A stretch of DNA of 62,634 bases. Source: a virus (Duplodnaviria; Caudoviricetes). Within the stretch, counting starts at the first letter, position 1, and each line of letters begins with the position of its first letter. The notes beneath the pieces are model-generated. The model was not told where the DNA came from. It ran no database searches and was given only the letters and a program-made list of their open reading frames with translations. Below, piece by piece: positions 10,915 to 29,433 of this stretch. Both the position numbers and the translations under genes were made by a program. Location: the IMG/VR virus record IMGVR_UViG_3300028298_000008, positions 1-62,634 of that record. One strand, 5' to 3'.

Positions 10915-10946
10915 ATAAAAAGCTCATCTTATAAAAGGAGGGATTA

Positions 10947-13058
10947 ATGATCAAAATTCTTTTGGTTGGAGACCATCCGGAAGGACCAACAGGTAATGCT
11001 CACATGATGCATGGTATAGCAAGCCAGATAGACCCGGAGAAATTTCAAGTAGCTATATTAGCGATAAACCCAAGGCTGGCCATTACATCTGAACGAACTT
11101 TTGAACATTCCAAATGGCCTATCCTGGATGTTCATTCCGTGACAAACCCTTGTGCATGGGAGCATTCTCTTATTGGATTGGTTGCCGGCAAGCAACCAAT
11201 TGATATTGTCTTGTTTGTCGGATTGGATATATGGATGTTTGCTTTTACTTTATCTTCTTTGGTTGAGATAAAAAAGAAAAGAAAGATTATAATTGCATCC
11301 TTATTTCCATACGAATTTTATTCGGTGAAAAAAGAATGGCTCGATTGGTTAGCTATGATAGATATTCCTCTTGTTTATTCAGAATTTGGCTTTAATAAAT
11401 TAAAGCCTTTCGTAAATAAAGTGCAATACTTTCGTCCTCCCCTATTCGACGCAAAACAATTTCTTCCTTTCTCGAAAGAGAAACGATTTGAGGCAAGGAA
11501 AAAGCTGTTTAAGTCTATCAATGATGAAAACTTTGTCTTTGGGTTTTTCGGCAATAATCAGTATAGAAAGGATCCACAAAGAGTAATACGTTCCTTTTTC
11601 CAGACAAAACAAATATGCCCAAACAATAAATTATACCTGCATACAGAAGTAACCACAGGCCCATTTAATATACCAAGATACTTAAAAGACTGCGGAAATC
11701 AACTTGGAGACGTGTTTATTAAAAAACAAAAATATCAATATGATACCACAGCTATGGTAGAGATGTATAATGCTGTGGATTGTCTTGTGAGTGCCTCCTG
11801 GCAGGAGGGATTAAGTTGGACGATCTTAGAAGCCATGCTATGCGGAACTCCTGTTGTGGCAGCAAACAATACAGCACACATTGAACTTTTAAAAGGTGGT
11901 GCAGGGTTGCCTGTAAAATGTGACGAGCTTGCTTACCTACCAATTGATATGGGAGAAAACTGCACTTATATTGAAACATACGCTTGCAACCCAGACTCCC
12001 TGACAAAAGCCATGTTAAAAGTAATGAAACCAAAGGTAAGAGAAGGTTTAATAAAACGGGGATTTGAACGAGCCCGTGAATGGTTAGCAGGGGTGGGAGA
12101 CATAAATGATGTCTTTATAAAAGCCATCGAATCTTCTCAGACAAACATCTCTGAAAAAACAAAGAAAGAGATAGGGATAAAAACTGAAAGGAAGAAAGAA
12201 GTTTTATTCGCTCAATACTCTTCCGCAGGTGATGTTTTAATGACAACAAGAGCATTAAAAGGCATTAAAGAAATGTTTAAAGGACTACCATTGACCTATA
12301 TGACTTCTCCTCAATACATGGACATTTTGATTCACAATCCTCACATTGATAAAATAAGGTCATGGAACGAAAAAGCATTCAATGAATATGAATTTGTTTT
12401 GAATCCACATGGTGACAGAATTGGTCCTGGTCATTGGGGGAGAAACAGTAATTCCCTTCTTTCTGATTTCTATTGGAAGATATTGATGGTGCAGCCCTGT
12501 GACTTTTTTATTGAGAAAGTGATGCCTCCTCAAAATATTTCCCTTTCAATTACTACAGCAAGGAAACCAATTCTTATTCTTCATACTACAGGAGGGGATG
12601 CTGAATTTCGAACATACAAATATATGGTTGACATAGCCGAAGCAACCAAAGAAAAATACTTTACTGTTCAGGTAGGTGCGGCAACCGACTATCCTGCAGG
12701 TTCACAACTTGATCTAAGAGGAGCTTTGTCCTTCAGGGAATCTGCTTGGGTTGTAAGTAAAGCCGAGTTAGCAGTCACAGTAGATTCCTTCATCAGTCAT
12801 TTATGTGGGGCTTTAGGAGTGTCCCAAGTTTGTTTATTTGGTTGTGGTAATTGTAATGTGGTGAGACCGAATCAAATGAATGGCATTCTTACTTGCATGG
12901 TAATTGATTATGTGAACGATTGCTTAGGACTTGGTCCTTGCTCTGCATCAGTAAGAAACTGCCCTCTCCCTTGTACAGGGCGGCACAATCCTAAATCTGT
13001 GCTAAAGGAAATCGAGGAGATAGAAAAAGATTTGGCGAAACAGAAGAGAATGGAATAA
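10947..13058 (+). CDS. bifunctional glycosyltransferase: GT4 (GT-B) fused to GT9 heptosyltransferase-like domain
   Basis: GT4: GNNQYRKD, YNAVDCLVSASWQEGLSWTILEAMLCGTPVVA. GT9: SAGDVLMTTRALKGIK, LDLRGALSFRES, VTVDSFISHLCGALGVSQVCLFG. Confidence 0.88.
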   Translation: MIKILLVGDHPEGPTGNAHMMHGIASQIDPEKFQVAILAINPRLAITSERTFEHSKWPILDVHSVTNPCAWEHSLIGLVAGKQPIDIVLFVGLDIWMFAFTLSSLVEIKKKRKIIIASLFPYEFYSVKKEWLDWLAMIDIPLVYSEFGFNKLKPFVNKVQYFRPPLFDAKQFLPFSKEKRFEARKKLFKSINDENFVFGFFGNNQYRKDPQRVIRSFFQTKQICPNNKLYLHTEVTTGPFNIPRYLKDCGNQLGDVFIKKQKYQYDTTAMVEMYNAVDCLVSASWQEGLSWTILEAMLCGTPVVAANNTAHIELLKGGAGLPVKCDELAYLPIDMGENCTYIETYACNPDSLTKAMLKVMKPKVREGLIKRGFERAREWLAGVGDINDVFIKAIESSQTNISEKTKKEIGIKTERKKEVLFAQYSSAGDVLMTTRALKGIKEMFKGLPLTYMTSPQYMDILIHNPHIDKIRSWNEKAFNEYEFVLNPHGDRIGPGHWGRNSNSLLSDFYWKILMVQPCDFFIEKVMPPQNISLSITTARKPILILHTTGGDAEFRTYKYMVDIAEATKEKYFTVQVGAATDYPAGSQLDLRGALSFRESAWVVSKAELAVTVDSFISHLCGALGVSQVCLFGCGNCNVVRPNQMNGILTCMVIDYVNDCLGLGPCSASVRNCPLPCTGRHNPKSVLKEIEEIEKDLAKQKRME

Positions 13059-13081
13059 TATATATGAATAAAGGAGGAGCG

Positions 13082-13771
13082 ATGAAGAAACTGGTTGTGG
13101 CATCAAATATGTTTAATGAACACCATCAATTAGAGGAATGGTTTGCTTTTGTAAAGCAGATCGCGGATGCCGGCATTGTTATTGTAGACACAGGTTCTAC
13201 TGATGGAACAATCGAATATGCCAGAGAACAAGGAGCCGTCGTCATTATTGACGACATTATTCTGCGTGAGGGATATGGACCAGCTCGTAATCACCTACGA
13301 GAAATGTCAATAATACATTTCCCCAAAGCTCATTGGATGATCTATCTCGATGGCGATGAGAGAATTCTTGAAAAGGATTTCCACAATCTTCGTTTTACAA
13401 AAGATTATCTGATTGATGCTTTTGACGTGGTAGCTCTTCCACGTGTCGATTGGATGAACAAAGAAATGACTGAAGCGGCAAAAGACTGGCGAGTATACCC
13501 AGACTGGCAGGCTCGCATGTCAAGATTAAATAGTGGAGTAAAATATATTCGGAGACTCCACGAACAGATTGAAGGCCATAAAGCCATATATACAAATCTG
13601 AATCTGCCCAAGATCAATCATTTCCACCGCTCAGCAGGGAAAGAAACAAGGGATCGGATAGGGCGTATCTGTGCGAAGTTGCACGCAGAGGATCAAGATT
13701 ATGGGCATACTTATCCAAAGCATCCCAAAGAGGATTTATATTATGAACAGTATAAAAAAGAAGGATTGTAA
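13082..13771 (+). CDS. GT2 (GT-A) glycosyltransferase
   Basis: MFNE, IVDTGSTDGT, ARN, WMIYLDGDE (DxD), PDWQARM, RLHE. Confidence 0.88.
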   Translation: MKKLVVASNMFNEHHQLEEWFAFVKQIADAGIVIVDTGSTDGTIEYAREQGAVVIIDDIILREGYGPARNHLREMSIIHFPKAHWMIYLDGDERILEKDFHNLRFTKDYLIDAFDVVALPRVDWMNKEMTEAAKDWRVYPDWQARMSRLNSGVKYIRRLHEQIEGHKAIYTNLNLPKINHFHRSAGKETRDRIGRICAKLHAEDQDYGHTYPKHPKEDLYYEQYKKEGL

Positions 13772-14417
13772 TGCTCCTAATTGCAACAGAAGCTCCTTTA
13801 GGCACAGTTTGTACTGTGAGCGTCACAATAAACAGTTGAAACTGTTCGGTAGGATACGCACGGAATTTGTTAGAAGCAAAAAAGAACCTAATGAAATTAT
13901 TGTGGAACAAAACATAGGAAGGATTCTTTTGTATAATGAATTTGGTGAGGTAATAAAAGAAACAATAATTGATATTAATCAGATTGACAAAGTAAAAAAA
14001 TATAAATGGACTTTTGATGGGAGGTATGCCATAAACATAAATAATAGACTGTATCTACACCATCTCATTTTCAACTTTCAAAAAGAAAAGGGAAGGTTTA
14101 TTGATCATAAAAACGGAAATGGTCTTGATAATCGATTATCCAATTTGAGATCATGTACACAGGCCCAAAATTTATGGAATAGAACATATCAGATAAATAA
14201 TAAAATAGGATATAAAGGTGTTTCCTGGTGCAACAAGAGAAACAAATGGAGGGTAGCAATTTCGTTTAATGACACTTACAAACACATAGGATACTTCCAT
14301 ACAATTAAAGAGGCTGTAGAGGCACACAGAAAAGCCTGTATCCAGTATCATGGAAAGTTTGCTTATCCTGAACATCATAAAGAAGCGGAGTACGCTGAAT
14401 ATGGAGGAATGAAATGA
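13743..14417 (+). CDS. free-standing HNH homing endonuclease with AP2-like C-terminal domain
   Basis: LHHLI...IDHKNGNGLDNRLSNLR; GYKGVSW...KWRVAI...HIGYF. Confidence 0.9.
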   Translation: MNSIKKKDCNAPNCNRSSFRHSLYCERHNKQLKLFGRIRTEFVRSKKEPNEIIVEQNIGRILLYNEFGEVIKETIIDINQIDKVKKYKWTFDGRYAININNRLYLHHLIFNFQKEKGRFIDHKNGNGLDNRLSNLRSCTQAQNLWNRTYQINNKIGYKGVSWCNKRNKWRVAISFNDTYKHIGYFHTIKEAVEAHRKACIQYHGKFAYPEHHKEAEYAEYGGMK

Positions 14418-14674
14418 AAAAAGAAGATTTCGTAAATTTTATAAAAAAAACATTAAAAGCAGTAGAAAATGATGACTCCGCAGAAGGAAGCATTAGATAC
14501 GAATGGGGGAAAGAAAGAGACCTCTATAATGTCAATGCCTTTGTCCGAGTGGGTAACTCAATGGGTCAAGGAGGTTGTGTGCTTGTTAATGAAAAATTGA
14601 GGGACGATCCTCCGCAAGGACCAGAAGAAATTGAGGAAAGCAGCGATGCCGTAACAGAATGTGGAGATAAGTAA
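14414..14674 (+). CDS. hypothetical protein
   Basis: GGAGG RBS, ATGA overlap. Confidence 0.65.
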   Translation: MKKEDFVNFIKKTLKAVENDDSAEGSIRYEWGKERDLYNVNAFVRVGNSMGQGGCVLVNEKLRDDPPQGPEEIEESSDAVTECGDK

Positions 14675-14686
14675 AAGGAGCTTGAA

Positions 14687-14752
14687 ATGGCAGAAGGCGT
14701 CCACCGCATTACAGAAGAAAGGGAACGCTTCCTGAAGGAAGGATTAAAATGA
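14687..14752 (+). pseudogene. 21-codon remnant resembling the N-terminus of the DegT aminotransferase at 16939
   Basis: AGGAG RBS; MAEGVHRITEE versus MSEGVYRITQE; stop overlaps the ATG at 14749. Confidence 0.6.
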
Positions 14753-15456
14753 TCCAGGAAATCCCGGAAGAAACAAAGTATTTCTTTCTTGAAAGTGTCT
14801 GGAAAGATTACTTCCGATACAAAATGGAAGATATGAAAATGATAAGGTTTGGTTGGGAGGGAGAAGATAAGAATCTGAAAGCCTTCAATAGTAAAAAAGA
14901 GTATATAGAATGGTATTGCTTTCATCCAAAAGCACCAGAGCCTTATAGAGATTTTGGTTTCTATACTCGTGAGCTGACAGCATTATCAAATTTTATGCGA
15001 CCAAAAGTAATCGTTGAGATTGGCACGGGTCTTGGAGCAGGTACTTTTCTTCTTTATCACTTGAATCCAGATGCCCATCTAATCACAATAGACAGAAAGC
15101 AATTCCAGAAAGCCCCTGAGAACATGGTATTTCAAACAGGTGATCTTGCTATAATTAATGGTATTCCTTACAATTTTATATGGGGGAATTCGTCCTCTGC
15201 TATCATAACAAAGAAATTCAATCTGTGCTTCATTGACGGAGATCATTCTTTTGCAGCCGTTTGGGAAGACAGTTTATGGGCTTGGGAAAACAAGGACGAG
15301 GACAACTTTGTAATTATTTGGCATGACTTTCGTGAGGACAACCCTGAGTTTGAAGGATTAAGGAAGGCAATAAAGTTGTTTTCTGAATGGGCAAATATTG
15401 ACATTCATAAATTGAAAGACAGCTCAACGGCGTGGTGCTACAGGAGATCAGAATGA
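14749..15456 (+). CDS. class I SAM methyltransferase (Methyltransf_24-like, sugar O-methyltransferase type)
   Basis: IVEIGTGLG, ITID, FIDGDHS, IWHD. Confidence 0.85.
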   Translation: MIQEIPEETKYFFLESVWKDYFRYKMEDMKMIRFGWEGEDKNLKAFNSKKEYIEWYCFHPKAPEPYRDFGFYTRELTALSNFMRPKVIVEIGTGLGAGTFLLYHLNPDAHLITIDRKQFQKAPENMVFQTGDLAIINGIPYNFIWGNSSSAIITKKFNLCFIDGDHSFAAVWEDSLWAWENKDEDNFVIIWHDFREDNPEFEGLRKAIKLFSEWANIDIHKLKDSSTAWCYRRSE

Positions 15457-16151
15457 AAAGAATACCAATCTTAATCCTGTGCATTGGTGAGCAAGGAGCA
15501 AGTGTCTTGTCAAAGACTTTTAATTTATGTGGAATGTCCTTGGGCAATGAAAAAACATATTGGCACCCTGAATACAATACCCCAAATTGGGAGCACTCTT
15601 ATGTAACTGCAATAATGGCTTGGGTGCATCAACGACCAAAAGAAGAATGGCAGTTGGCGTTAAGAAAAGTTCTTCAATCTTACAAAGCAGAAGCCGAAAA
15701 TGAAAACTGGAAATGTTATGGAATAAAAACGTCAAGCGGTATCTGCAATTCAAAATGGGGAATGGGAGTGAGTGATATTCTCAAGGAAGAATGGCCAGAC
15801 GCTCTTTATTTTAGTGTGCTAAGAAGACCTAACGTAAATCACCCTGATGCAAATGATCATTGGAACAGTGTTTGGGTAGGAAGAAAAGGAATCGTTGATA
15901 GAGGAGGAGTGTTTGTTCTTTTTCCAGATGCTTGGCTGGACGGAACAATACAAAAGGTTATTGAGGCCTCAGGCCTTGTCTGGAAAGAAGAAGCCATCTC
16001 TGCATTTGAAAAAAGAGAAGCGGAAACTCCTTTGCCTACTATTGAAGAAGAAAAAGTATATTATGATATTTATCCCATAGAGAAAGAGCAAAGGGATTAC
16101 TTATGGAATAAAAACAAAGAAAACTTCCAGAGGATGAAGGAAATGAAATGA
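15453..16151 (+). CDS. sulfotransferase-like P-loop protein (divergent)
   Basis: ILCIGEQGASVLSKTFNLCGMSLG, WEH, YGIK and VLRRP follow the layout of the G-x-x-R-S-G-T-S sulfotransferase family, but the PAPS loop is degenerate. Confidence 0.45.
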   Translation: MKRIPILILCIGEQGASVLSKTFNLCGMSLGNEKTYWHPEYNTPNWEHSYVTAIMAWVHQRPKEEWQLALRKVLQSYKAEAENENWKCYGIKTSSGICNSKWGMGVSDILKEEWPDALYFSVLRRPNVNHPDANDHWNSVWVGRKGIVDRGGVFVLFPDAWLDGTIQKVIEASGLVWKEEAISAFEKREAETPLPTIEEEKVYYDIYPIEKEQRDYLWNKNKENFQRMKEMK

Positions 16152-16939: not shown

Positions 16940-17586
16940 TGAGTGAAGGCGTATATAGAATCACTCAGGAATTTGAAGAAGCTTTGGCCAGATACACAGG
17001 GTCTGCTTATGCTGTTACAATTGATAATCAAAGCAATGCTTTATTTCTTGCTCTAATATACACTGGTATAGAGGGAAAGGTAATAACTATCCCTTCAAGA
17101 ACATATCCTTCCGTCCCTTGTGCAATAATACATGCTGGAGGAAAGGTCAAATTTTATGCATCTGAAAAGGGCACTTTAAAAGGAGAGTACCAGCTCGTTG
17201 GCTCGAATGTATGGGATTCTGCTTTACGATTTACACATAATATGTATAGACCAGGACAATTACAATGCCTGTCGTTTACTGGTCCTTATAAACACTTGAA
17301 GCTTGGAAAAGGAGGAGCGATTCTAACGGACAATGTTGATGCTTGGCGATGGCTTAAAAGAGCCAGGTTTTCTGGAAGAAGAGAATGCTCCTACCATGAA
17401 GATCATTTTGATATGCTGGGATGGAATTATTATCTTATGCCAGAGATAGCAGCCAGAGGATTGTTGTTGATGAATCAATTTTATGATATAGAAGGAAATC
17501 CAAAGAATAACGATGATCTTGAGCTTCCTTATCCTGATCTTAGCAAATTTTCAATTTACACAGATTCCAATAGGACAGAAAAATGA
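16939..17586 (+). CDS. DegT/DnrJ/EryC1/StrS PLP-dependent sugar aminotransferase (short form)
   Basis: FEEALARYTGSAYAV, SNALFLAL, IPSRTYPSV, DSA, SFTGPYKHL (PLP Lys), GKGGAILTD, GWNY. Confidence 0.88.
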   Translation: MSEGVYRITQEFEEALARYTGSAYAVTIDNQSNALFLALIYTGIEGKVITIPSRTYPSVPCAIIHAGGKVKFYASEKGTLKGEYQLVGSNVWDSALRFTHNMYRPGQLQCLSFTGPYKHLKLGKGGAILTDNVDAWRWLKRARFSGRRECSYHEDHFDMLGWNYYLMPEIAARGLLLMNQFYDIEGNPKNNDDLELPYPDLSKFSIYTDSNRTEK

Positions 17587-18179
17587 CATTTGAAGAATGC
17601 TTACTCTTATGGAAAGAATTTGAAGGTCAAACAGATCCTACAGAAGGGGTTGAATTGTATAATGCTGTTATAAATACGCCTCCTGGCGCCGTTGTGGAAG
17701 TAGGCTCTGCTTCAGGTGGTACTACTATCATCTTAATAAAAGCTGCGGAACTTGTTGGCAAAATGGTTTATTCCATTGATATTTATCCAGAAGAGTTAGA
17801 AGGGAAAGCCCTGCATTGTCCTCCTGGATTAATGAGGGCATTAAAGGACAAATTCAAAAAGAATATCTTAAATGGTGATTATAAAAACATCATCCAATTC
17901 AATACAGACGTAAAAGGAAGTATTAGCAAATTGCCTAAAGAACTCTCCGTTGTGTTTATTGATGGGTGCCATGAGTTTTCTTTCGTTCAAGAGGAGTTTA
18001 ATCTGCTTTATCCATTAGTGATTGCTGGAGGATGGATTTTCATTCACGATACGACATGGGAACTTGGTCAAATATCTCTCACAGAAGAAACGGCTTTAAA
18101 ACAAGTTTGGCATAGAATCAACAAGGAATTGTTTTCAGAAATAAAAAAGGAAGGATCCATGTTCTGCGGAAGGAAATGA
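17583..18179 (+). CDS. class I SAM methyltransferase (Methyltransf_24-like)
   Basis: VVEVGSASGGTT, YSID, VFIDGCHE, GGWIFIHD. Confidence 0.87.
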   Translation: MTFEECLLLWKEFEGQTDPTEGVELYNAVINTPPGAVVEVGSASGGTTIILIKAAELVGKMVYSIDIYPEELEGKALHCPPGLMRALKDKFKKNILNGDYKNIIQFNTDVKGSISKLPKELSVVFIDGCHEFSFVQEEFNLLYPLVIAGGWIFIHDTTWELGQISLTEETALKQVWHRINKELFSEIKKEGSMFCGRK

Positions 18180-18180
18180 C

Positions 18181-18894
18181 ATGAAACTTGGAATAATGCA
18201 ACCTTATTTTTTGCCTTATATTGGTTATTTTCAATTAATGAATGCTGTTGATGAATTTGTTATTTATGACAACATTCAATACACAAAGAAGGGCTGGATA
18301 AATAGGAACAGAATCTTGGTGAATGGTAAAGCCAGTTACATTACTCTGCCTATCAAGAAAGATTCTGACCATTTGAATATAGTAGAGAGACGATTGGCTG
18401 ATGATGGAAAGGAAAGGATAAAACTGATTCGTAGAATAGACAATTTATATCACAAAGCTCCGAAGTTTAAATCAGTCTTTCCTTTAATCGAGGCGATCAT
18501 ATTGTTTAACACCAATAATTTATTTGGGTTTTTGCTCCATTCTCTCTATCAAACAAAATTCTATTTAGGAATATTAACTCCTCTTGTAATATCCTCAACG
18601 ATTACTATTGATCATTCTTTAAAGTCTGAGGAAAAAGTTATTAGTATCTGTAGGAGCAGAGAAGCAAAAATTTATATAAATGCCATAGGAGGAACCAGCT
18701 TATACAAAAAAGAAAATTTTGAGAAGGAAAGAATTGCTTTGAGGTTTATAAAGTCTGATCATATCGAATACAAACAGTTTGATAATCCATTCATGCCTGC
18801 TCTTTCTATAATAGATGTTATGATGTTCAACCCAAGAGAAAAAATAGCTGAGTATTTGTCCAAATACACATTGATCGGAGCAGATAATGAGTAA
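18181..18894 (+). CDS. WbqC-family protein (putative glycyl transferase for amino sugars)
   Basis: IMQPYFLPYIGYFQLM...DEFVIYDNIQYTKKGWINRNRI, YINAIGG, LSIIDVMMF. Confidence 0.92.
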   Translation: MKLGIMQPYFLPYIGYFQLMNAVDEFVIYDNIQYTKKGWINRNRILVNGKASYITLPIKKDSDHLNIVERRLADDGKERIKLIRRIDNLYHKAPKFKSVFPLIEAIILFNTNNLFGFLLHSLYQTKFYLGILTPLVISSTITIDHSLKSEEKVISICRSREAKIYINAIGGTSLYKKENFEKERIALRFIKSDHIEYKQFDNPFMPALSIIDVMMFNPREKIAEYLSKYTLIGADNE

Positions 18895-20188
18895 ACCTAC
18901 CCTGCTGATTAATTTGTCCATAGCAAAAGAATCTACCACACAAAACTTCGTGATGCCCATAGGTATTTTATCATTAATTTCTTATCTTATCTCTCAAGGA
19001 GAGCATGTAGATTTTATAGATTTGAATGTGGACAAAGATGTTGATAAACGTCTAAATGAAGAACCAGAAATAGTCGGACTGAGTGTTATGGTGGCTGGGC
19101 AATTCAATCAGGCATACGAGATTTGTAAAAAAATAAAGCAAAGAAACACCAAAACATTAACAGTAATGGGAGGCGCACACGTTTCCCAGTTTTCCAAAGA
19201 CATAAAGAAAAATTGTAAAGAGGTTGACTTTGTTATAGAAGGAGAAGGAGAAAATAAGTTACTGAATTTAATTAGAAATGGATTAGTAAATCAAGCTGCA
19301 TACATAAAAGACCTTGACAACCTGCCTTGGCCAGCATATCATCTATTAAACTTTAAGGACTATAGAAGAGATTACTCCACTTGGAACAACCCATACAATG
19401 CAGATTTAGGAATCCGAGTTCCTATTATTACAAGCAGAGGTTGCCCAAAAGGATGTAATTTCTGTTCAGTCAAAAACCATATGGGCACAAAATATCGGTA
19501 CATGAACAGCTACAACGTCGTTAATCTACTTCAATGGCTGCATGAGAAGTATGGAGTAATATATTTTGCCTTTTATGATGCCAATTTTTCGTGCAAGCCA
19601 AATAGAATCATAGAAATCTGCAACGAGATAAAACGAAGAGGGCTGAAATTTTATTTGGATCTTCCAACAGGAATACCAATAGATAGATTTGCAATCCCTT
19701 TAATTGAAGCTCTTGTAGAAGTTGGATTAATCCGCATCACATTATCGGTAGAATCAGGGGACTCTGTTATTCGTAATAAAGTTATGAAGAAACATTCAAA
19801 CCAAAATGATATTTTTGCCATAATTGATGCTATTCACAAATACAAACATCTCTACTTACTGACTGATTTCATAATAGGTATGCCTGAAGATACAGCAGGG
19901 TCTTTAAACAACACCTGTGATTTAGTATCCTCTTTAAATGTAGATGATATAACTATATCAATTGCCACTCCATATCCAGGAACACCTTTATACGATCAAT
20001 GTATTAAAGACAATTTATTCTTACCAGAAATAAATCCTCAAGATTTTTATAAAGATGAGGAATACTCCCATTCTAATATCAACAGGTTCACTATCAAACC
20101 ATATGCCATGACCAGAGAAGAATTGATTTTTTATAGAGATAAAATGCTATCATTAAAAGAGAGGAAGTTATGTACAACAAAGACATAA
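18887..20188 (+). CDS. cobalamin-binding radical SAM enzyme (class B methyltransferase-like)
   Basis: MPIGILSL, VMGGAHVS, GEGE, LDNLPWP, TSRGCPKGCNFC, VESG, FIIGMPEDT, PYPGTPLY. Confidence 0.92.
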   Translation: MSKPTLLINLSIAKESTTQNFVMPIGILSLISYLISQGEHVDFIDLNVDKDVDKRLNEEPEIVGLSVMVAGQFNQAYEICKKIKQRNTKTLTVMGGAHVSQFSKDIKKNCKEVDFVIEGEGENKLLNLIRNGLVNQAAYIKDLDNLPWPAYHLLNFKDYRRDYSTWNNPYNADLGIRVPIITSRGCPKGCNFCSVKNHMGTKYRYMNSYNVVNLLQWLHEKYGVIYFAFYDANFSCKPNRIIEICNEIKRRGLKFYLDLPTGIPIDRFAIPLIEALVEVGLIRITLSVESGDSVIRNKVMKKHSNQNDIFAIIDAIHKYKHLYLLTDFIIGMPEDTAGSLNNTCDLVSSLNVDDITISIATPYPGTPLYDQCIKDNLFLPEINPQDFYKDEEYSHSNINRFTIKPYAMTREELIFYRDKMLSLKERKLCTTKT

Positions 20189-20577: not shown

Positions 20578-21509
20578 AAGAAGAAACGTACACATCGACA
20601 GGACTCAAAATTCTTCATCATCCCGATGCGCTGAGATTAGCACAGAAAAAGATGGCTAAACCAATATCTTTGCAAATCTCTCCGACTTCCCGATGTAATT
20701 TAAGCTGTGTTTTCTGCTCCAATGTTAATAGAGGAAAAGACGAACAGTTGCCCTTTGATGTTATCAAAACTCTTCTACGACGACTTTGTTATTTAGGAGC
20801 GAAGACCGTTGAATGGACAGGGGGTGGAGACCCAACATTATACCCCGAAATCAACGAAGTGATTGATATAGCCTATTCTATGGGTTTAAAACAAGGATTT
20901 ATTACAAATGGGGTAGCTGTGGCTAAGAATCTTAAAAGAACATCATTAAAGCATCTTCATTGGTTGAGAATTTCCTTAAACTGCCTGGACTATGTTGATG
21001 ATATTGAAATACCAAAAATTAAAGGGACGTTAGGATTCAGCTATGTCATGAATACAGAGACGTGCCCAAACACAATCAAAAAGCTCATAGAGTATGGGAA
21101 GAAGCACAAACCTGCGTATATCCGAATTGTTCCGAATTGCCTTGCCACAGACGAAGAGCAGCTTTATAATAACAAAGTGCTTTCGGAAATGGTTGATGAC
21201 TGGGGACATCCTTTCTTTTATCAAGCGAAACTGTTTGAAAGACCTGAGCGATGTTGGTGGGGGTATTTTAAACCCTTTGTCCTTCATGATGGATGGGTCT
21301 ACCGCTGTTCCTCTGTTGTATTGAATCTTGACGCTGAGCGTAAATTTGATGAGAAATATAGATGGTGTACTGTTGAAGAACTTCCTGATATGTACCTATC
21401 AAAAATGATTCCATTCGATCCCGAACCGTGTTCACATTGTGTATTTTCCAATCAAAATAATTTAATTGATGGAGTTGTTAATCCTAATGGACAAGAAGAT
21501 TTCATATAA
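20574..21509 (+). CDS. radical SAM enzyme with SPASM/twitch-like C-terminal Cys
   Basis: CNLSCVFC, TGGGDPT, ITNG, C...DGWVYRC, CSHC. Confidence 0.88.
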   Translation: MKEETYTSTGLKILHHPDALRLAQKKMAKPISLQISPTSRCNLSCVFCSNVNRGKDEQLPFDVIKTLLRRLCYLGAKTVEWTGGGDPTLYPEINEVIDIAYSMGLKQGFITNGVAVAKNLKRTSLKHLHWLRISLNCLDYVDDIEIPKIKGTLGFSYVMNTETCPNTIKKLIEYGKKHKPAYIRIVPNCLATDEEQLYNNKVLSEMVDDWGHPFFYQAKLFERPERCWWGYFKPFVLHDGWVYRCSSVVLNLDAERKFDEKYRWCTVEELPDMYLSKMIPFDPEPCSHCVFSNQNNLIDGVVNPNGQEDFI

Positions 21510-22032
21510 AATAAGAACAAAATTTGACCCGAATGAAATCCTTATCGAGGGTCTTATTTGCAGGATGAAATTATACAACTCCAAGAATGAAGAGATAGCA
21601 GAAACGATCTTTGATATACAGCATATTAAAAAAATAGGTGCTCTTAAATGGTATTTGTGTAAAACAGGATATGCTACCAATTTAAAAACAAGAAAGAGAA
21701 TGCATCAACTGATCCTGCCTTGCCCCAGAGGAGTTGAGGTAGACCATAAAGACAGAAATAAACTTAATAATAAAAGAAACAATTTACGATATGCTTCAAA
21801 ATCACAGCAAGGACAAAATAGAGGTCCAAATAGAAACAGTCAATCAGGAATAAAAGGAGTATGGGAACTTCCAAATGGGAAATGGTCTTCTCAAATCACC
21901 TGTAATAAGAAAAGATATGTCCTGGGGGATTTCTTAACAAAAGAGGAGGCTGCCCAAGCTTATAATGAAAAGGCTCTCTTACTCTTTGGAAAATTTGCAA
22001 GTGTAAATAAAGAAGGAGGACATAATGAATAA
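21487..22032 (+). CDS. HNH homing endonuclease with AP2-like domain
   Basis: MHQLI...VDHKDRNKLNNKRNNLR; SGIKGVW...KWSSQI...EEAAQAYN. Confidence 0.9.
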   Translation: MDKKISYKIRTKFDPNEILIEGLICRMKLYNSKNEEIAETIFDIQHIKKIGALKWYLCKTGYATNLKTRKRMHQLILPCPRGVEVDHKDRNKLNNKRNNLRYASKSQQGQNRGPNRNSQSGIKGVWELPNGKWSSQITCNKKRYVLGDFLTKEEAAQAYNEKALLLFGKFASVNKEGGHNE

Positions 22033-22530: not shown

Positions 22531-22545
22531 AAAGGAGGTCTACTG

Positions 22546-22752: not shown

Positions 22753-22764
22753 AGGAGGTTATTA

Positions 22765-23523: not shown

Positions 23524-23535
23524 CAGGAGGTTTTA

Positions 23536-24189
23536 ATGAAGAAAGGAGGAGAGATAATAAAATGCAAAGTAAAAGGATGCCCTTCTAAAAAGAGAAGTTT
23601 AACAGGGTTTTGCGCTCGTCATTATTGGCAGATTAAAAACTTTGGTGTGATTAAAGGAAATCCAAAGCAATCTCTTAAAACCCCTAATGAGTTTATTATG
23701 GAAGGAAGTATTTGTAGAATTAAACTTTATAATAGGTTAGGAGAAGAGATTGCTGAGGCCATAATAGATGCAGAGGATTACTCTAAGGTAAAAGGTTATA
23801 AATGGGGAATTCAAAGCCCTAAAGGACATGTAAAAACCTATTTAAAAGGGAAAAACAAAGGACTTGCTAACATAGTTTTGGGAAAGGATTCCTCCAGACA
23901 AGTCCAAATTGATCACAAAGACAGAAACCCATTGAATAACAAAAAAGACAATCTAAGATTCTGTTCTCATAAACAAAATGGTTGGAATCGTGGTCCTAAC
24001 AAAAACAATTCCTCAGGATTAAAGGGAATCAGTAGATGTAAAAATAAGTGGAGAGTTATGATACAAAGACAAAATAATAAACCCATTTACTCAAAAACTT
24101 TTGATTCCAAGGAATTAGCAGTGGAAGCTTACAATCAAAAAATAGTAGAAATTCAAGGCCGATTTGCCTATACAAATCCAACAAAATAA
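23536..24189 (+). CDS. HNH homing endonuclease with AP2-like domain
   Basis: N-terminal CKVKGC...CARHY; IDHKDRNPLNNKKDNLR; SGLKGI...KWRV...AVEAYN. Confidence 0.9.
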   Translation: MKKGGEIIKCKVKGCPSKKRSLTGFCARHYWQIKNFGVIKGNPKQSLKTPNEFIMEGSICRIKLYNRLGEEIAEAIIDAEDYSKVKGYKWGIQSPKGHVKTYLKGKNKGLANIVLGKDSSRQVQIDHKDRNPLNNKKDNLRFCSHKQNGWNRGPNKNNSSGLKGISRCKNKWRVMIQRQNNKPIYSKTFDSKELAVEAYNQKIVEIQGRFAYTNPTK

Positions 24190-24200
24190 GGAGTATTATT

Positions 24201-25217
24201 ATGTTAAAAAAAATAGCTATAGGCCTCACCCACGGCCATTGCCCAAAATGGCTTCAGACCTGCATTCATTCTCTGAAGCGGTATTACAACGAAGTTGGAA
24301 TGGACATCTATGTAGCCTGCTCATGGCCAGGGCATCCAAGCATCAAAGCTTTGACGGAAACTCCTCTCGGAGAAAATGTCACCCTGATTGATTGTGAACG
24401 AAGAAAGCACAGCCACGCAACAGGGCTTGAAGAAATTCTTGAACTCATTTGGGATAAGGATTATGATTTCTTCTTCACCTGTGAAACAGATTGCCGAGCA
24501 ATGAAGGACGGCTGGCTTGACTGGTTCCACAAGTATTTGCTGATGAGCAGTCATTTCGGAATTGCCGGCTTCTATTGGGATGAAGGAACAAATCATCAGA
24601 ACATCAATGCCTCCGGAACACTATACAGAATGGGGATGCTGAAACGCTACCATCAGGAATGTCGGGACAATAATGAAGGCATGTTTTGGCACCCAAGAGG
24701 CAATCGACACGATACAGAAATGGGGATGGATCCATCAATCAAAGACGTTGTCGGCTGTTTCGCCGAAACACGGGGAATCAAAGACCCTACAGACCCACAG
24801 AAAGAGATCATCATGCGCGGCGTTCCTCAGGCCTCTTGGTTTGAACCTGGCCAATGGTTGTATGCTCGCCTCCAAGCAGAGTGGGGGGAGGTAAGAGTGC
24901 CTTGCGATCATATTTATCTCCACACTCCAGGACAGCCAAGTGTCTACACACCAGAAGGAACATACTACGGAGGCAAAAAAGATCCGTACTTCATTCACTA
25001 TTGGGGAGGGACTCGGTGCTATGATTTCCTCAAACATCCAGTCAATGACAATTTCGTGAAGAATGGATCACCATGGTGGATCAAGCGGGAAGATGCCGTT
25101 TGGAGAGAAGAAGTTCCTGAAGAATACCGGCAGATCGTTCACCAGCTCAACATTGAAGCAAATGTAGAGCAGAAGATGAGGGAGAATCTTGGAATCTTTG
25201 TTCCGGAGGCTATGTAA
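24201..25217 (+). CDS. GT-A-fold glycosyltransferase-like protein
   Basis: WLQTCIHSLKRY, HATGLE, FFFTCETDC (DxD-like), IHYWGGT; cluster context. Confidence 0.55.
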   Translation: MLKKIAIGLTHGHCPKWLQTCIHSLKRYYNEVGMDIYVACSWPGHPSIKALTETPLGENVTLIDCERRKHSHATGLEEILELIWDKDYDFFFTCETDCRAMKDGWLDWFHKYLLMSSHFGIAGFYWDEGTNHQNINASGTLYRMGMLKRYHQECRDNNEGMFWHPRGNRHDTEMGMDPSIKDVVGCFAETRGIKDPTDPQKEIIMRGVPQASWFEPGQWLYARLQAEWGEVRVPCDHIYLHTPGQPSVYTPEGTYYGGKKDPYFIHYWGGTRCYDFLKHPVNDNFVKNGSPWWIKREDAVWREEVPEEYRQIVHQLNIEANVEQKMRENLGIFVPEAM

Positions 25218-25426
25218 TGTTTTTTGGCAAAACAACGGAGGTCGTTAAACTCCTTATTGATAATCCTAAACACATTATGGTTGTCCCTTCTAAAAAAGTG
25301 CGAAGGAGAATCATAAAGCTGTTCAAATTGCCTGTGAGTGTGTCCAGACGTATTAAGACTCCTCCTTGTCCGGACACCACGTTAGAGGGTCGATGTTTTT
25401 ATTGGTTTGATGAACCACTGGAGTGA
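25217..25426 (+). CDS. hypothetical protein
   Basis: GGAGG RBS, TAATG overlap. Confidence 0.55.
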   Translation: MFFGKTTEVVKLLIDNPKHIMVVPSKKVRRRIIKLFKLPVSVSRRIKTPPCPDTTLEGRCFYWFDEPLE

Positions 25427-25440
25427 GGAAAGGATATATT

Positions 25441-25737
25441 ATGACCAAACAAGAAATACTTGATTTTATCAACCAACTACCAGACCGTGACAATTATGAC
25501 ATCGGTCTGGAGGCGGACACCTTATATATTCATGTGAAACGGTTTAAACTCACATCTAAAGACGGGACTGCCAGGAGGCACTGCGAAGTTGAAATAGATG
25601 GAAAACTCATTAGTGGTGTGTCCCATTTAGAAATAATAGCAGACCCTAAACAACCCGGATACATTAACATCAAAATGATGCTTTTACCAAACACTATAAT
25701 AACGGAAGGGGGTGATTCCCATCAACTTCCAACTTGA
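25441..25737 (+). CDS. hypothetical protein
   Basis: AAGGA RBS, packed ORF. Confidence 0.6.
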   Translation: MTKQEILDFINQLPDRDNYDIGLEADTLYIHVKRFKLTSKDGTARRHCEVEIDGKLISGVSHLEIIADPKQPGYINIKMMLLPNTIITEGGDSHQLPT

Positions 25738-26551
25738 GACCAGCTCTTACTGTAATTTGAGATGTGTAGAATGCCCGCATCGCCTGATGAAAAGGAGACA
25801 GTCATTGATGTCCTATGATACCTTTTCCAAAATTTTGCACGACTACATTCTGCCTTATAAGGATATGAATAGATGTGCAGGGCATCAGCCAACAATTATT
25901 CTACACAAAGATGGGGAGCCGTTGCTCAACCATAATTTAACAACCTTCATAAAAATGATCTCTTACGCAGACCCAAAGTTGAAGATAGACATTTACACAA
26001 ACGGTCTCCTTCTTACGGAAGAGTTCATTCGTTTCTTAGGCACTATGCCAAATCCTATTTGGCTACTTGTATCGTTTCACTTCTATAATTATGATGAAAC
26101 AGGTAATGATTATGAAAGCACAAATGAAGTTCTGCTGAAGGCGCTTGATTATAAGCCTTCAAATGTAGACCTGATCTTCGTATCTCATGTCACCAGATTT
26201 ATAAATGAGAGAAGATTACTTGCTTGGCAAGGTTTCTGGAAAATGGAAGCCTCTTCAAGAAACGTGAAGCTTGAGGTGCACATAAATCCACACATCAACC
26301 CATGGACAGGCTTGATCGATGAACCGAATTGTGTAAAGTTCGGTGGTTGTCCGTATGCAGATTTCGGCCATATATTCTTTGGCGCCACCGGGAATGTTGT
26401 TCCTTGTTGCATGGATTTGGAGGAACAGATCACTTTCGGCAATATTCAAAAAGATGACCCTGCTGAAGTAATAGAGAAGCTGAAATTCTTCTACGAAGGA
26501 TTGAACAAAAAAGAGCTTTTACCGCCTCTATGCGAGAGATGTATGCTTTAA
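25712..26551 (+). CDS. radical SAM / SPASM-twitch enzyme
   Basis: CNLRCVECP, DGEPLL, YTNG, C...GNVVPCCMD...FGNI, LCERC. Confidence 0.88.
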   Translation: MIPINFQLETSSYCNLRCVECPHRLMKRRQSLMSYDTFSKILHDYILPYKDMNRCAGHQPTIILHKDGEPLLNHNLTTFIKMISYADPKLKIDIYTNGLLLTEEFIRFLGTMPNPIWLLVSFHFYNYDETGNDYESTNEVLLKALDYKPSNVDLIFVSHVTRFINERRLLAWQGFWKMEASSRNVKLEVHINPHINPWTGLIDEPNCVKFGGCPYADFGHIFFGATGNVVPCCMDLEEQITFGNIQKDDPAEVIEKLKFFYEGLNKKELLPPLCERCML

Positions 26552-26642
26552 AGCAGAAAAGCGCAAATAGACACAGTTTTGTGTGAAATTTAATCGGTTT
26601 TGAAGGGGCTTTACGATGAAAAATTTAATAGGCAAAGAGGAT

Positions 26643-28430
26643 ATGCTCTTGAACCAACGAAACAAACAATCTCTTCCCTCAGAGTTTTATGATGCCGACT
26701 ATTATCTCAGGGGAATTGAAACAGGTAAAAGCTGTTATCAAAACTATCGCTGGTTGCCAGAGTTGACAATGCCAATGGTCATGAGGATCATTGATTATCT
26801 TCATATTCGTCCAGATCAAACTATCCTTGATTATGGGTGCTTTCCTGCTGGAGTCAAAATCTTAATGGGGAATAAAAATTATAAAAATATAGAGGAAATT
26901 TGTGTTGGGGAGGAAATAACAACCTCCAAAGGAAGTATAAAAAGGGTGTTATCTGCTTCTAAACGAAAGGTTAAGAAAACTATTATTATACATCTTTCTC
27001 ATAAAATGAAGATAGAATCTTCTTTGGAACACCCCTTCCTTTGTCAAAAAAGAGAGGAGGTATTATGTCGCCCATCAGGATGGAATGGCACATGCAACAC
27101 AAATCACCCTAAAGGATGCTCAAAATGTCATAAAAAGGGAAAGTATGATAGTCCTTATTTTGTAAATGCAGAGGATTTAAAACCTGGAGATTATTTATGC
27201 CTCCCAAGATTTTCTAAAAAAGAATATTTCATAGAAAAAGATGATTGGGCAGAATTTCTTGGTTTTTACTTAGCCGAAGGTAATCTTATTTATTCCCATA
27301 AGCATCATAATAAACCCCATAATATAGGAGGACTTGAATTTACTTTCCATATAAAGGAAAAGAATTATGCAGAAAGAATTGTGTTTCTTTCTAAAAAACT
27401 TGGGGGAGTTTCCACATCTGTTCGTGAATGTGAAGAAAGGCACACTCTTACTGTTTTAGTTTTTGGTAAAGTATTAGCAGAAGAGGTTTTGAGATTAGGA
27501 GGTCAAAAAGCAGATAAAAAAAAGCTCGCCCCCGAAATAATTAATACTTGGAAAGATTCTTCTATCCGAAAATTAGTAATTTCTTGGTTAAAAGGAGATG
27601 GTTGTCTTTTTCATAATCCTATAAATGGAGGAACCGTTTGGGGGGGATGTTCCATATCCCATGATCTTATTTTAGGAATGAGACAAATTTTACTTAGACT
27701 TGGTATTATGAACACTTTAACAAAAATAAAAAAGAAAGTGGATAGAAGACAAGCTTATAATCTTACTATTTATGGAAGATTTAATATCAACAAACTGAAT
27801 GAGAAAGAACAAAGAACAACCAATACTTCTATTCAAAATAGAATGTCTGATGATTATATCTTTGTACCGATCAGAAAAATAAAAATAAAAAACAAAAAAA
27901 CATTTGTTTACAATATGGAAGTGCAAGGAGATCACACCTATATTGCAAATGATCTTTGTGTTCATAACTGTTCATTAGGATTTGTCGTAAAAGCTTTCCG
28001 ACTTCTCCACAGACAAGCATGGGGATTCGATATAAGCAAATATGCTATCGACAATGTGGATCCTATGGTAAAACCATACTGCTTCACCTCTACCAATCTT
28101 GTGGAGATACCAGAGAGCTTTGATTATTGTATAGCCAAGGACGTTCTCGAACATATCAGTTATGAATGCATAGAGAACATCCTTAAATATATCAATGCCA
28201 AGAACATCTTCGCCATTATTCCACTTGGTAGTAATGACAAGTATGAAGCCCCATCAAACGACCTTGATATTTCCCACATCATCTGTGAGCAATTGGATTG
28301 GTGGCTTGAAACCTTTGCTCATTCGAACTGGGAATTTATTCACTTTGGTTATCGTATTGATGGCATCAAAGATTCTTATTATAGGAAGTATCCACGAGCA
28401 CATGGATTCTTTTTTTGTAAAAGGAGGTAG
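26643..28430 (+). CDS. class I SAM methyltransferase interrupted by an intein
   Basis: After removing the intein, motif I reads ILDYGCSLG, followed by GFDISKYA and FDYCIAKDVLEHI; N-terminal FYDADYY. Start may instead be 26616. Confidence 0.88.
   Translation: MLLNQRNKQSLPSEFYDADYYLRGIETGKSCYQNYRWLPELTMPMVMRIIDYLHIRPDQTILDYGCFPAGVKILMGNKNYKNIEEICVGEEITTSKGSIKRVLSASKRKVKKTIIIHLSHKMKIESSLEHPFLCQKREEVLCRPSGWNGTCNTNHPKGCSKCHKKGKYDSPYFVNAEDLKPGDYLCLPRFSKKEYFIEKDDWAEFLGFYLAEGNLIYSHKHHNKPHNIGGLEFTFHIKEKNYAERIVFLSKKLGGVSTSVRECEERHTLTVLVFGKVLAEEVLRLGGQKADKKKLAPEIINTWKDSSIRKLVISWLKGDGCLFHNPINGGTVWGGCSISHDLILGMRQILLRLGIMNTLTKIKKKVDRRQAYNLTIYGRFNINKLNEKEQRTTNTSIQNRMSDDYIFVPIRKIKIKNKKTFVYNMEVQGDHTYIANDLCVHNCSLGFVVKAFRLLHRQAWGFDISKYAIDNVDPMVKPYCFTSTNLVEIPESFDYCIAKDVLEHISYECIENILKYINAKNIFAIIPLGSNDKYEAPSNDLDISHIICEQLDWWLETFAHSNWEFIHFGYRIDGIKDSYYRKYPRAHGFFFCKRR
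26838..27968 (+). mobile_element. intein with LAGLIDADG homing endonuclease (377 aa) in the methyltransferase
   Basis: Block A CFPAGVKI, block B SLEHPF, FLGFYLAEGN, WLKGDG, VYNMEV...YIAN...VHN followed by Cys+1. Confidence 0.95.
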
Positions 28431-28432
28431 TT

Positions 28433-28603: not shown

Positions 28604-28613
28604 GGGGGTAGTT

Positions 28614-29420: not shown

Positions 29421-29433
29421 GAGAGGGACTATC

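Follow-up and report, generated by a model that had tools for sequence, protein, structure and literature searches.

The 62,634-bp viral record IMGVR_UViG_3300028298_000008, analysed here in its entirety and referred to as the window, derives from a siphovirus and carries, at positions 10947-28430, a cluster of 15 genes for soluble enzymes of glycan synthesis and tailoring together with six other open reading frames (ORFs). We lean towards the view that this cluster is a wholly cytoplasmic phage glycosylation system that probably decorates the phage's own virion proteins, the predicted acceptor. Seven of the enzyme genes constitute a core module that recurs in related uncultured phages, and in all 11 related lineages with readable flanks this module lies inside the virion structural genes.

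All 21 ORFs of at least 80 residues in the cluster lie on the + strand and are densely packed, many overlapping by 1-8 nt (Table 1). The enzymes comprise a GT4-GT9 glycosyltransferase (GT) fusion, a GT2 enzyme, two GT-A folds, four class I S-adenosylmethionine (SAM) methyltransferases, a sulfotransferase-like protein, a short DegT-like protein, a WbqC-family protein, a GNAT acetyltransferase, a B12-binding radical SAM enzyme and two further radical SAM enzymes; the remaining ORFs are three HNH(-AP2) endonucleases, one DUF7694 gene and two small orphan ORFs. A preliminary description of this DNA had reported a co-directional cluster with up to five GT domains, four methyltransferases and other tailoring enzymes, which Pfam, AlphaFold2/Foldseek and ESM Atlas analyses bear out. 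Its inventory was right in substance but overlooked the three HNH endonucleases, the DUF7694 gene and an intein within one methyltransferase. Its remark on the unusual size of the enzyme set is borne out by comparison with the relatives, most of whose loci have 7-8 enzyme genes against the 15 found here.

A conserved core module with a variable slot

The core module consists, in order, of genes for the GT4-GT9 fusion, the GT2 enzyme, a 311-residue radical SAM enzyme, a Methyltransf_24 methyltransferase, a 338-residue GT-A enzyme (GT-A338), a BtrN-like radical SAM enzyme and a class I methyltransferase. Every core gene in the window is comparable in length to its counterparts in relatives, where a second methyltransferase often follows the Methyltransf_24 gene. 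The uncultured phage loci L020-L027, L041, L051 and L057 carry the full module in unchanged order, at 40-63% identity; a reduced version (22-45% identity) is found in L028-L032/L065, and a minimal one, consisting of GT9, GT2-like, methyltransferase, core GT-A and radical SAM genes, in L019 and L033, the former also with a PIG-L deacetylase gene. Scans with the core GT-A returned 15 viral loci and 33 metagenome loci, a single match in 185,579 species genomes (pattern-based scan) and none in 50,697 GenBank phage records; the single match is a 10-kb contig of a metagenome-assembled genome (MAG) that carries the module too.

Between the GT2 and 311-residue radical SAM genes lies a slot that is filled differently in different phages. 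The cassette of the window (13671-20577), larger than any other seen, comprises genes for an HNH endonuclease, an 86-residue ORF, a methyltransferase, the sulfotransferase-like protein, a GT-A enzyme, the short DegT-like protein, a second methyltransferase, WbqC, the B12 radical SAM enzyme and GNAT; this cassette also holds the lowest G+C content of the genome (0.34-0.36, at 18-22 kb). The slot of L023 contains sulfotransferase-like, GT-A, short DegT-like and hexapeptide acyltransferase genes and one unassigned gene, those of L022 and L020 a single unassigned gene apiece, and that of L027 a methyltransferase and an S-adenosylmethionine decarboxylase gene (7908-8288; PF02675, 2.1e-22), which hints at aminopropyl transfer in the L027 glycan. 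The window's short DegT-like/WbqC pair is also common, at 53-70% identity, to separate phage glycan clusters (L001-L018). In L001 and L004, the two examined closely, the pair sits with GT4, GT2, a GH130/GH43-like beta-propeller, GNAT and methyltransferases (TylF-type in L001), and the glycan cluster adjoins genes for a clamp-loader ATPase, a PD-(D/E)XK nuclease and, in L001, a GroEL-type chaperonin.

The module lies among virion structural genes in related phages

The preliminary description had suggested examining co-occurrence across related phages. The comparison returned the seven-gene core in order and, in 11 of 11 lineages, its placement within structural genes; loci with short or unrecognisable flanks were set aside (L025, L031, L034, L040, L043-L045, L047-L049, L052, L055, L056, L058-L064 and L067-L072). 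Seven of the lineages (the L022 group, L023, L027, L041, L051, L057 and L024) share what we call a type A head, and in six of them the module lies directly behind a set of head genes, the module of L024 bracketing them instead. In L022/L026 it has the major head gene on one side and the tape measure gene on the other, and in L020, whose contig begins within the GT4-GT9 gene, it is followed by tail genes. The order in L032/L065 is portal, protease, scaffold, major head, a 126-residue ORF, module, neck, tube and tape measure, and in L019 and L033 the module separates a portal gene (P22-type or phrog_156) from the capsid gene. The head genes of module-bearing phages fall into three groups that are unrelated to one another and to the window's HK97-type head; a profile search found no type A head genes in the window.

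A scan with type A capsids gave 77 loci, which form 44 lineages at 90% capsid identity, 37 of them with enough flank. The GT4-GT9 gene lies directly behind the same head gene in 15 of these 37 and is absent from the other 22, so the module is accessory and always uses the same insertion site. In several lineages only GT4-GT9 matches the protein panel, and the genes behind it differ; kept while its downstream genes vary, it is the conserved anchor of the module.

Directly after the capsid gene, 11 of the 15 lineages with GT4-GT9, and none of the 22 without it, encode a Ser/Thr-rich protein of ~140-165 residues (Fisher 1.6e-6). Small post-capsid proteins with ~21% Ser+Thr accompany three unrelated head types (window 53356-53775, - strand; L022 2241-2732; L032 7487-7867); the mean of the window genome is 10.7% (standard deviation 3.9), and structural proteins are Ser/Thr-rich in general. 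We regard the capsid-adjacent protein (139 residues in the window) as a candidate acceptor, a lead and not a finding; further candidates are the window's capsid protein (53790-54995) and tube protein (49529-50500) and, in the relative G001, the capsid and its small neighbour.

Several observations weigh against a virion acceptor. The association with the Ser/Thr-rich protein is confounded by kinship, since the capsid tree needs only three gains or losses of the GT4-GT9 gene; in three independent pairs the small protein goes in the same direction in 2.8 on average and never in the opposite one (sign test p ~0.25), and four lineages have GT4-GT9 without it. The window is the only lineage with the module outside the structural genes: its cluster closes the + strand arm, preceded by recombination genes and a gene with a DnaJ domain. 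No module gene was seen among the structural genes of six loci that have the window's head type (capsid identity 64-81%), on contigs of at most 25 kb, and a capsid-specific acceptor would have had to change, since the head genes of the window bear no relationship to those of its module-bearing relatives. Morons whose products act on the host typically occupy late operons too, GT9 and GT4 are families that build the core of lipopolysaccharide (LPS), and we infer the roles of the radical SAM, WbqC and sulfotransferase-like proteins from weak or family-level similarity.

Membrane genes and a possible host envelope acceptor

As the preliminary description had stated, the cluster encodes no initiating transferase and no polytopic membrane protein. 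A crude Kyte-Doolittle scan of the coding strands flagged only the tape measure, the large tail protein J and small ORFs of the arm that runs from lysis to tail genes as having two or more hydrophobic segments, and six-frame searches of the record, in which control families matched in 6-13 of 14 genomes, gave no matches to PF02397 or PF00953. The record is 'linear' with a CheckV completeness of 69%, so absences from it are not absences from the phage, and the key searches were repeated on relatives. Two of these, G001 (82.5 kb) and G004 (62.0 kb), are complete module-bearing genomes with terminal repeats. G001 is a true but distant relative of the window phage (identities of 51% for RecA, 35-43% for SbcCD, 55% for an ATPase, 37% for tail protein J and 41-61% for the module); of the two complete genomes it is the one that was scanned for hydrophobic segments, and it encodes no protein with more than two of them and no polytopic membrane protein.

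As an argument against a host lipid acceptor, this lack of membrane genes is weaker than the preliminary description held, because the GT9 and GT4 enzymes of LPS core synthesis are likewise soluble or peripheral and need no phage flippase. The enzymes could work at the cytoplasmic face on a host envelope glycolipid or wall polymer, such as the inner or outer core of LPS, with the host exporting the product; the effect would be receptor masking, a block to superinfection or progeny that do not stick to debris. GT9 (heptosyltransferase-like) and GT4 enzymes together build LPS core, the solved relatives of the cluster's GT9 domain are LPS heptosyltransferases, and family descriptions place WbqC and DegT typically in O-antigen clusters. 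We nevertheless judge an envelope acceptor unlikely. The placement of the module within the head/neck block of every readable lineage speaks against it, and the near absence of the core GT-A from species genomes is unlike enzymes lately borrowed from host envelope pathways. Tyrosine integrases (PF00589) were absent from five related records, including complete G001 and G004 (serine integrases were not searched for), which makes classical lysogenic seroconversion unlikely. The earlier preference for a soluble, virion-borne acceptor over seroconversion thus gains from the head-block position and from the lack of ThyA and integrase genes in the two complete relatives, but loses from the location of the window cluster outside the structural genes and from the fragmentary record.

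Possible products off the virion and possible DNA modification

The product might also leave the virion untouched, either as a free oligosaccharide or aminoglycoside-like small molecule or as a glycan on a soluble host protein or non-structural phage protein. An aminoglycoside-like mixture is indeed encoded, with GT4, DegT-family, BtrN-like dehydrogenase, B12 radical SAM methylase, N-/O-methyltransferase and GNAT functions, and the short DegT-like protein weakly matches 2-deoxy-scyllo-inosose aminotransferases; the window cluster, moreover, sits among early/middle genes beside a DnaJ-domain gene. We recognised no cyclitol synthase, nucleotidyltransferase, exporter or resistance-type gene, however, and the core module lacks the DegT-like, GNAT and B12 enzymes on which the aminoglycoside resemblance depends. 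An off-virion product would also leave the head-block position in relatives without explanation, and we consider it improbable.

Least probable is that the glycosyltransferases hypermodify phage DNA, placing a tailored glycan on a hydroxymethylated pyrimidine or other modified base. There are phage GTs, akin to enzymes of LPS and teichoic-acid synthesis, that attach hexose, N-acetylhexosamine or heptose to 5-hydroxymethylcytosine (5hmC), and some of the 5hmC-glycan clusters lie near structural genes (bioRxiv 10.1101/2023.12.21.572611). The incompleteness of the record, a deoxynucleoside monophosphate (dNMP) phosphatase gene behind the cluster (phrog_318, 3.2e-52) and FolE and QueE-like genes in complete G001, which suggest some base modification there, would also fit. 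The preliminary description had noted no thymidylate-synthase-like gene, and this holds for the whole record (no six-frame matches to PF00303 or PF02511). Its suggested search for base-modification genes likewise found no ThyA-type enzyme (PF00303) in any of six records, namely the window and five relatives, two of them complete, although it did recover deazaguanine-type genes in G001, unlinked to the module. Tet_JBP (PF12851) was absent from five of five records, a weak negative because the family matched in no control genome, and the C5 cytosine methyltransferase family (PF00145) is absent from the window, G001, G002 and G003 and present only in G004, far from the module. Five GT domains with sulfation, amination and acylation would also exceed the mono- to trisaccharides described in that study (bioRxiv 10.1101/2023.12.21.572611).

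In G001 the deazaguanine-type genes are separated from the module by ~30 kb and run on the opposite strand. This genome encodes ThyX, GTP cyclohydrolase I, two small radical SAM proteins (one QueE-like with Fer4_12) and a dATP/dGTP diphosphohydrolase domain, and it fuses DNA polymerase A to a uracil-DNA glycosylase (UDG)-like domain (L036 2619-3299, 11643-12293, 14239-14811 and 16094-16759; L035 17969-18364). These genes probably form a 7-deazaguanine DNA modification pathway unrelated to the glycan module.

A proposed route to a tailored virion glycan

For a glycan on virion proteins, host nucleotide sugars would be the likely donors, because the phage has no sugar-nucleotide synthesis genes: no nucleotidyltransferase or dehydratase was recognised in our annotation. 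GT4-GT9, kept in every version of the module, is probably the enzyme that recognises the acceptor and starts the chain, which three or four GT-A enzymes would then extend. Tailoring, of either the glycan or nucleotide sugars, would come next. The BtrN-like radical SAM enzyme may convert a sugar hydroxyl to a ketone, as suggested by BtrN, a sugar/cyclitol dehydrogenase and its only solved relative. In this phage the short DegT-like protein could transaminate that ketone, and WbqC and/or GNAT could acylate the resulting amine, an order that fits the presence of WbqC (16 of 18 loci) or a hexapeptide acyltransferase (L023) behind the short DegT-like gene. The Methyltransf_24 enzymes would carry out O-methylation and the B12 radical SAM enzyme C-methylation, and the sulfotransferase-like protein may add sulfate.

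More tentatively, such modules may represent a 'virion serotype' system in many uncultured tailed phages, in which a conserved priming enzyme and core are combined with an exchangeable cassette that diversifies the glycan coat much as bacterial O-antigen loci do. The window would then hold the most elaborate version (aminated, acylated, O-/C-methylated and possibly sulfated) and the first radical-SAM/cobalamin-dependent glycan tailoring on a virus particle, and HNH genes and the intein would have spread because co-infecting phages share the module.

Relation to known glycosylation systems

A close parallel is found in mycobacteriophages. In cultured Cluster J phages, 8-10 GT and methyltransferase genes separate the capsid genes from the connector genes (PMC3706429), and virion glycosylation is reported for Che8, Corndog and Myrna, with glycans on capsid and tail-tube subunits (PMC12619734, PMC12363180, citing Freeman et al. 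2023). Both systems belong to tailed phages and combine soluble GTs with SAM methyltransferases, and the block between capsid and connector genes has its counterpart in the module of the relatives, though not in that of the window. No sequence relationship was detected, however, and the present module is further equipped with two or three radical SAM enzymes, a GT9-like domain, a DegT-like/WbqC/GNAT amino-sugar branch and a sulfotransferase-like protein. Among 50,697 phage records, tblastn with GT4-GT9 matched a single one, Tetrasphaera phage TJE1 (24.6% identity over 44%), and megablast with the cluster gave no match.

Chloroviruses attach an unusual methylated glycan to their major capsid protein autonomously, using soluble virus-encoded GTs and methyltransferases; the same review gives the acceptor of B736L itself as unknown (PMC9614988). 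PBCV-1/NY-2A (A064R, A061L, A546L/B736L) resemble the window phage in their soluble, cytoplasmic multi-domain GTs and methyltransferases, and B736L is the nearest solved GT4 relative, a similarity at family level only. They differ in being eukaryotic giant viruses without radical SAM enzymes.

Butirosin and related aminoglycoside pathways share with the window a BtrN-like radical SAM enzyme of similar size, a DegT-family protein and acyltransferases. Here, however, similarity to BtrN covers only residues 7-110, a 2-deoxy-scyllo-inosose synthase is missing, the DegT-like protein is shortened, and the core module holds the radical SAM enzyme without an aminotransferase. LPS core and O-antigen loci have the same CAZy-type families (WaaC/WaaF for GT9, WaaG for GT4), and the trio of DegT, WbqC and acetyltransferase is typical of O-antigen amino-sugar branches; WbqC is named after the Escherichia coli O121 / Shigella dysenteriae 7 cluster. 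The window cluster differs from them in lacking Wzx, Wzy, an initiating phosphotransferase and an ATP-binding cassette (ABC) exporter, and its module in having a phage-restricted core GT-A and a location among head genes. With phage DNA glycosylation (T4 alpha/beta-GT; the 5hmC-glycan clusters of Pyle et al.) it shares soluble GT-A/GT-B enzymes that would use host nucleotide sugars. Published 5hmC-glycan clusters depend on a neighbouring ThyS or 5mYOX enzyme (bioRxiv 10.1101/2023.12.21.572611), whereas the defining partners, a ThyA-like hydroxymethylase or a C5 methyltransferase with a TET-like dioxygenase, were not found here, the TET search having no working control.

A full-text literature search returned no description of such a capsid-linked GT/radical SAM module. 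The kind of system is already known; by sequence, the enzyme set with its predicted radical-SAM tailoring differs from those described and occurs in no cultured phage searched. Published demonstrations of phage virion glycosylation are confined to a few actinobacteriophages, in which it alters antibody recognition. If our proposal is correct, glycan-coated virions would be common among environmental phages and made by an enzyme set absent from the cultured phages searched, including radical-SAM chemistry with which no protein glycan has so far been connected. The consequences would extend to phage adsorption, particle stability, recognition by hosts and grazers, and phage engineering, and unusual sugars could be made with a compact set of enzymes that needs no membrane. 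Biochemical work could start from the GT4-GT9 anchor, the short DegT-like/WbqC pair, the BtrN-like radical SAM enzyme and the GT-A family without a Pfam model.

Glycosyltransferases of the cluster

The protein that opens the cluster joins an N-terminal GT4-like GT-B domain to a C-terminal GT9-like one, whose Pfam match scores 23.6 bits against a cut-off of 22. The family profile finds its best solved relative in chlorovirus NY-2A B736L (3oy2; E 1.5e-14, positions 3-391), and its GT9 part matches 3tov and WaaC at ~1e-5, a weak resemblance to LPS heptosyltransferases. Homologues in L020-L032 are 27-54% identical. The profile retrieved 545 representatives at E<=1e-30 from a 50%-identity library, and among the best 150 of these, 35 span at least 600 of its 693 positions. 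Pattern scans of viral contigs with GT4-GT9 alone or with the B12 radical SAM enzyme alone gave no relatives; those of GT4-GT9 came only through loci fetched with other genes. Four invariant C-terminal cysteines of the GT9-like part (C659, C665, C672 and C676) are reminiscent of the iron-finger of TibC, one of the bacterial autotransporter heptosyltransferases (TibC/Aah), GT9 relatives that glycosylate proteins. TibC was not found among PDB matches to the GT9 domain alone at E up to 10, nor among the best 60 of 83 matches to the family profile, where LPS heptosyltransferases were listed.

Homologues of the GT2 enzyme share 59-68% identity in L020-L023, L027, L041, L051 and L057. Pfam returned no match, even at E 5, for 15432-16151, 16148-16939 or 24201-25217. 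The second of these is assigned through ESM Atlas (feature score 0.97, template-modelling (TM) score 0.65 to GT2 clusters) and has a homologue of 35% identity in L023. The third, GT-A338, has homologues in at least 81 clusters, 33-74% identical and all devoid of Pfam domains, and E95 and D97 are invariant in this family. Its AlphaFold2 model, built from an alignment of 25 homologues, has a predicted local distance difference test (pLDDT) of 93.7; Foldseek matched it best to 6p61 in the PDB (3e-8), followed by SpsA and WrtF, and of 366 matches at E<=0.001 those shown were nearly all GT-A glycosyltransferases.

Table 1. Features of the cluster and of the two arms of the window
Feature	Position	Strand	Evidence and remarks	Placement
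+ strand arm	1-30 kb	+	RecA-like, 5'-3' exonuclease, SbcCD-like, RusA-like, DnaJ-domain gene (10246-10914), cluster, dNMP phosphatase
Two-domain glycosyltransferase, 703 aa	10947..13058	+	Pfam Glyco_trans_1_4 (GT4) 1.4e-9 and GT9 3.6e-5	core module
GT2-type GT-A glycosyltransferase, 235 aa	13064..13771	+	Glyco_tranf_2_4 5.1e-8; DGD at residues 96-98	core module
HNH-AP2 homing endonuclease	13671..14417	+	HNH_3 1.1e-8, AP2 7.2e-5; phrog_99 1.1e-41	selfish insert
86-aa ORF	14414..14674	+	no Pfam, PHROG or NCBIfam match
Class I SAM methyltransferase	14749..15456	+	Methyltransf_24 7.3e-8	variable cassette here
Sulfotransferase-like protein, 239 aa (tentative label)	15432..16151	+	ESM Atlas only	variable cassette
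GT-A/GT2-like glycosyltransferase, 263 aa	16148..16939	+	ESM Atlas only	variable cassette
Short DegT-like protein of pyridoxal phosphate (PLP) fold, 215 aa	16939..17586	+	Pfam DegT 6.2e-16, profile positions 25-97 only	variable cassette
Methyltransf_24 / CmcI-type (sugar O-) methyltransferase	17583..18179	+	Pfam 3.1e-13; RMNT_CmcI 1.8e-6	variable cassette
WbqC-family protein, 237 aa	18181..18894	+	Pfam 1.3e-68	variable cassette
B12-binding radical SAM enzyme, class B, probable methylase	18887..20188	+	B12-binding 2.6e-18 and Radical_SAM 1.5e-18; CxxxCxxC 186-193	variable cassette
GNAT N-acetyltransferase, 135 aa	20170..20577	+	Pfam 2.2e-11	variable cassette
Radical SAM enzyme, 311 aa	20574..21509	+	Radical_SAM 1.5e-11; CxxxCxxC 41-48 and five further C-terminal Cys	core module
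HNH homing endonuclease	21466..22032	+	HNH_3 3.8e-9; phrog_99 1.3e-35
DUF7694 protein, 107 aa	22207..22530	+	Pfam 9.9e-25
Methyltransf_24 methyltransferase, 252 aa	22765..23523	+	Pfam 6.4e-6	core module
HNH homing endonuclease	23536..24189	+	HNH_3 5.8e-7; phrog_99 7.2e-32
GT-A-fold glycosyltransferase, 338 aa (GT-A338)	24201..25217	+	family without Pfam model	core module
104-aa ORF, may not be a gene	25423..25737	+	no family match; overlaps start of 25712..26551
SPASM/twitch-type radical SAM enzyme, BtrN-like, 279 aa	25712..26551	+	SPASM 2.3e-8	core module
Class I SAM methyltransferase, intein-interrupted	26616..28430	+	phrog_27380 6.8e-27	core module
LAGLIDADG intein, 377 aa (residues 75-451)	26838..27968	+	Intein_splicing 1.4e-10, LAGLIDADG_3 8.1e-7, intein C-terminal region
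Minus-strand arm	30-62.6 kb	-	lysis, tail, head, portal and terminase genes

Tailoring enzymes

Of the methyltransferases, that at 14749..15456 is 25-47% identical to genes lying between the core Methyltransf_24 gene and GT-A338 in L020-L024, and in relatives a paralogue holds a core position; the core Methyltransf_24 enzyme itself has homologues of 47-55% identity in L020-L027, L041 and L057. The sulfotransferase-like protein resembles sulfotransferase clusters in ESM Atlas (feature score 0.96, TM 0.70-0.74). It has homologues in L023, L027, L047 and L057, and its invariant G22, S24, R131 and S146 may resemble positions that bind 3'-phosphoadenosine 5'-phosphosulfate (PAPS).

The preliminary description had assigned a DegT aminotransferase. 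The family is right, but the protein is a short form that lacks ~130 residues of the full DegT/DnrJ/EryC1 PLP fold (~360-390 residues with a catalytic lysine). Compared with perosamine synthetase, it keeps the position of the Schiff-base lysine and is missing ~40 internal and ~90 C-terminal residues. We rejected a truncated pseudogene as an explanation: homologues of 216-222 residues (60-70% identity) lie immediately upstream of WbqC in 16 of 18 viral loci, with another in L023, so the short form is a distinct subfamily whose activity is predicted. WbqC itself is found in 18 viral loci at 53-63% identity. Profile searches against solved structures with the WbqC, core GT-A and sulfotransferase-like families gave nothing significant, and a direct sequence search likewise found no solved relative of WbqC. 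A listing of publications that mention WbqC shows no biochemical description of it.

Of the three radical SAM enzymes, the B12-binding one has partial NCBIfam matches (P-methyltransferase, HpnJ and BchE), all far below the cut-offs, and 777 homologues, many on bacterial MAG contigs, including some among its closest relatives. Two SPASM-type enzymes had been proposed: a Pfam SPASM match places 25712..26551 in this class, but the 311-residue enzyme has five C-terminal cysteines without such a match. The solved relatives of the latter appear only at ~1e-5 (PqqE, viperin, MoaA and BlsE), and its homologues are 52-58% identical in L020-L023, L027, L040, L041, L051 and L057 and 39% identical in L024 and L029/L032. 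The 279-residue enzyme has CxxxCxxC at residues 14-21 and C-terminal cysteines at 207, 213, 232, 233, 274 and 277. BtrN structures match it at 7.5e-10 over the radical SAM core, and identities are 38-49% in L020-L023, L025, L027, L041 and L057 and 22-24% in L024 and L028-L032.

Mobile inserts and small ORFs

The intein of the last methyltransferase is inserted in SAM-binding motif I, as placed by alignment to intein-less homologues; one of these, L022:11826-12461 (Methyltransf_23 2.1e-8), aligns to residues 22-75 and 414-604. Group I introns and other RNAs were rejected as gene interruptions, since Rfam gave no matches and ARAGORN no tRNAs in the record; the interruptions are free-standing HNH genes and the intein. 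HNH(-AP2) genes occupy differing intergenic sites of the module in relatives (L020 ~6085-6705, L025 ~3055-3528, L040 ~2975-3571 and L051 ~4200-4691), which, together with the intein, suggests frequent exchange among co-infecting module-bearing phages. The GT-A338 and radical SAM genes adjoin directly in relatives, without the 104-residue ORF. In L045 a transposase gene (6637-7782; phrog_506, 3.4e-120) has inserted itself into the module, where it separates the core GT-A gene from the radical SAM gene.

Neighbouring genes

A 222-residue J-domain (DnaJ) protein (10246-10914, +; 1.4e-19) is encoded directly upstream of the cluster. We rejected it as a member of the module, having found no homologue in module-bearing loci or in G001. 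A promoter and terminator scan of 10100-30099 was uninformative, with values at chance level (71 against 62.8 +/- 8.4 and 19 against 13.7 +/- 3.4), and no replication genes are present in the record.

The portal gene of the window (56836-60519, -; 1227 residues) contains a LAGLIDADG intein at approximately residues 72-448 and ends in a class I methyltransferase domain (Methyltransf_25, 2.9e-21); the relative L152 matches only ~560 residues of this ORF. We rejected the idea that this fused domain and the module methyltransferase are paralogues, since BLASTP gave only E 0.16. In the - strand arm, an endolysin-like protein with a strongly hydrophobic N-terminus, a possible signal-anchor, is followed by four small ORFs with one or two hydrophobic segments, which together form a probable lysis cassette (30108-30704 and 30842-32362, -). 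Among the distal tail genes, 33755-34567 (-) encodes a 270-residue CBM96 protein (1.2e-9) whose Ser+Thr content of 21.5% is the maximum of the genome.

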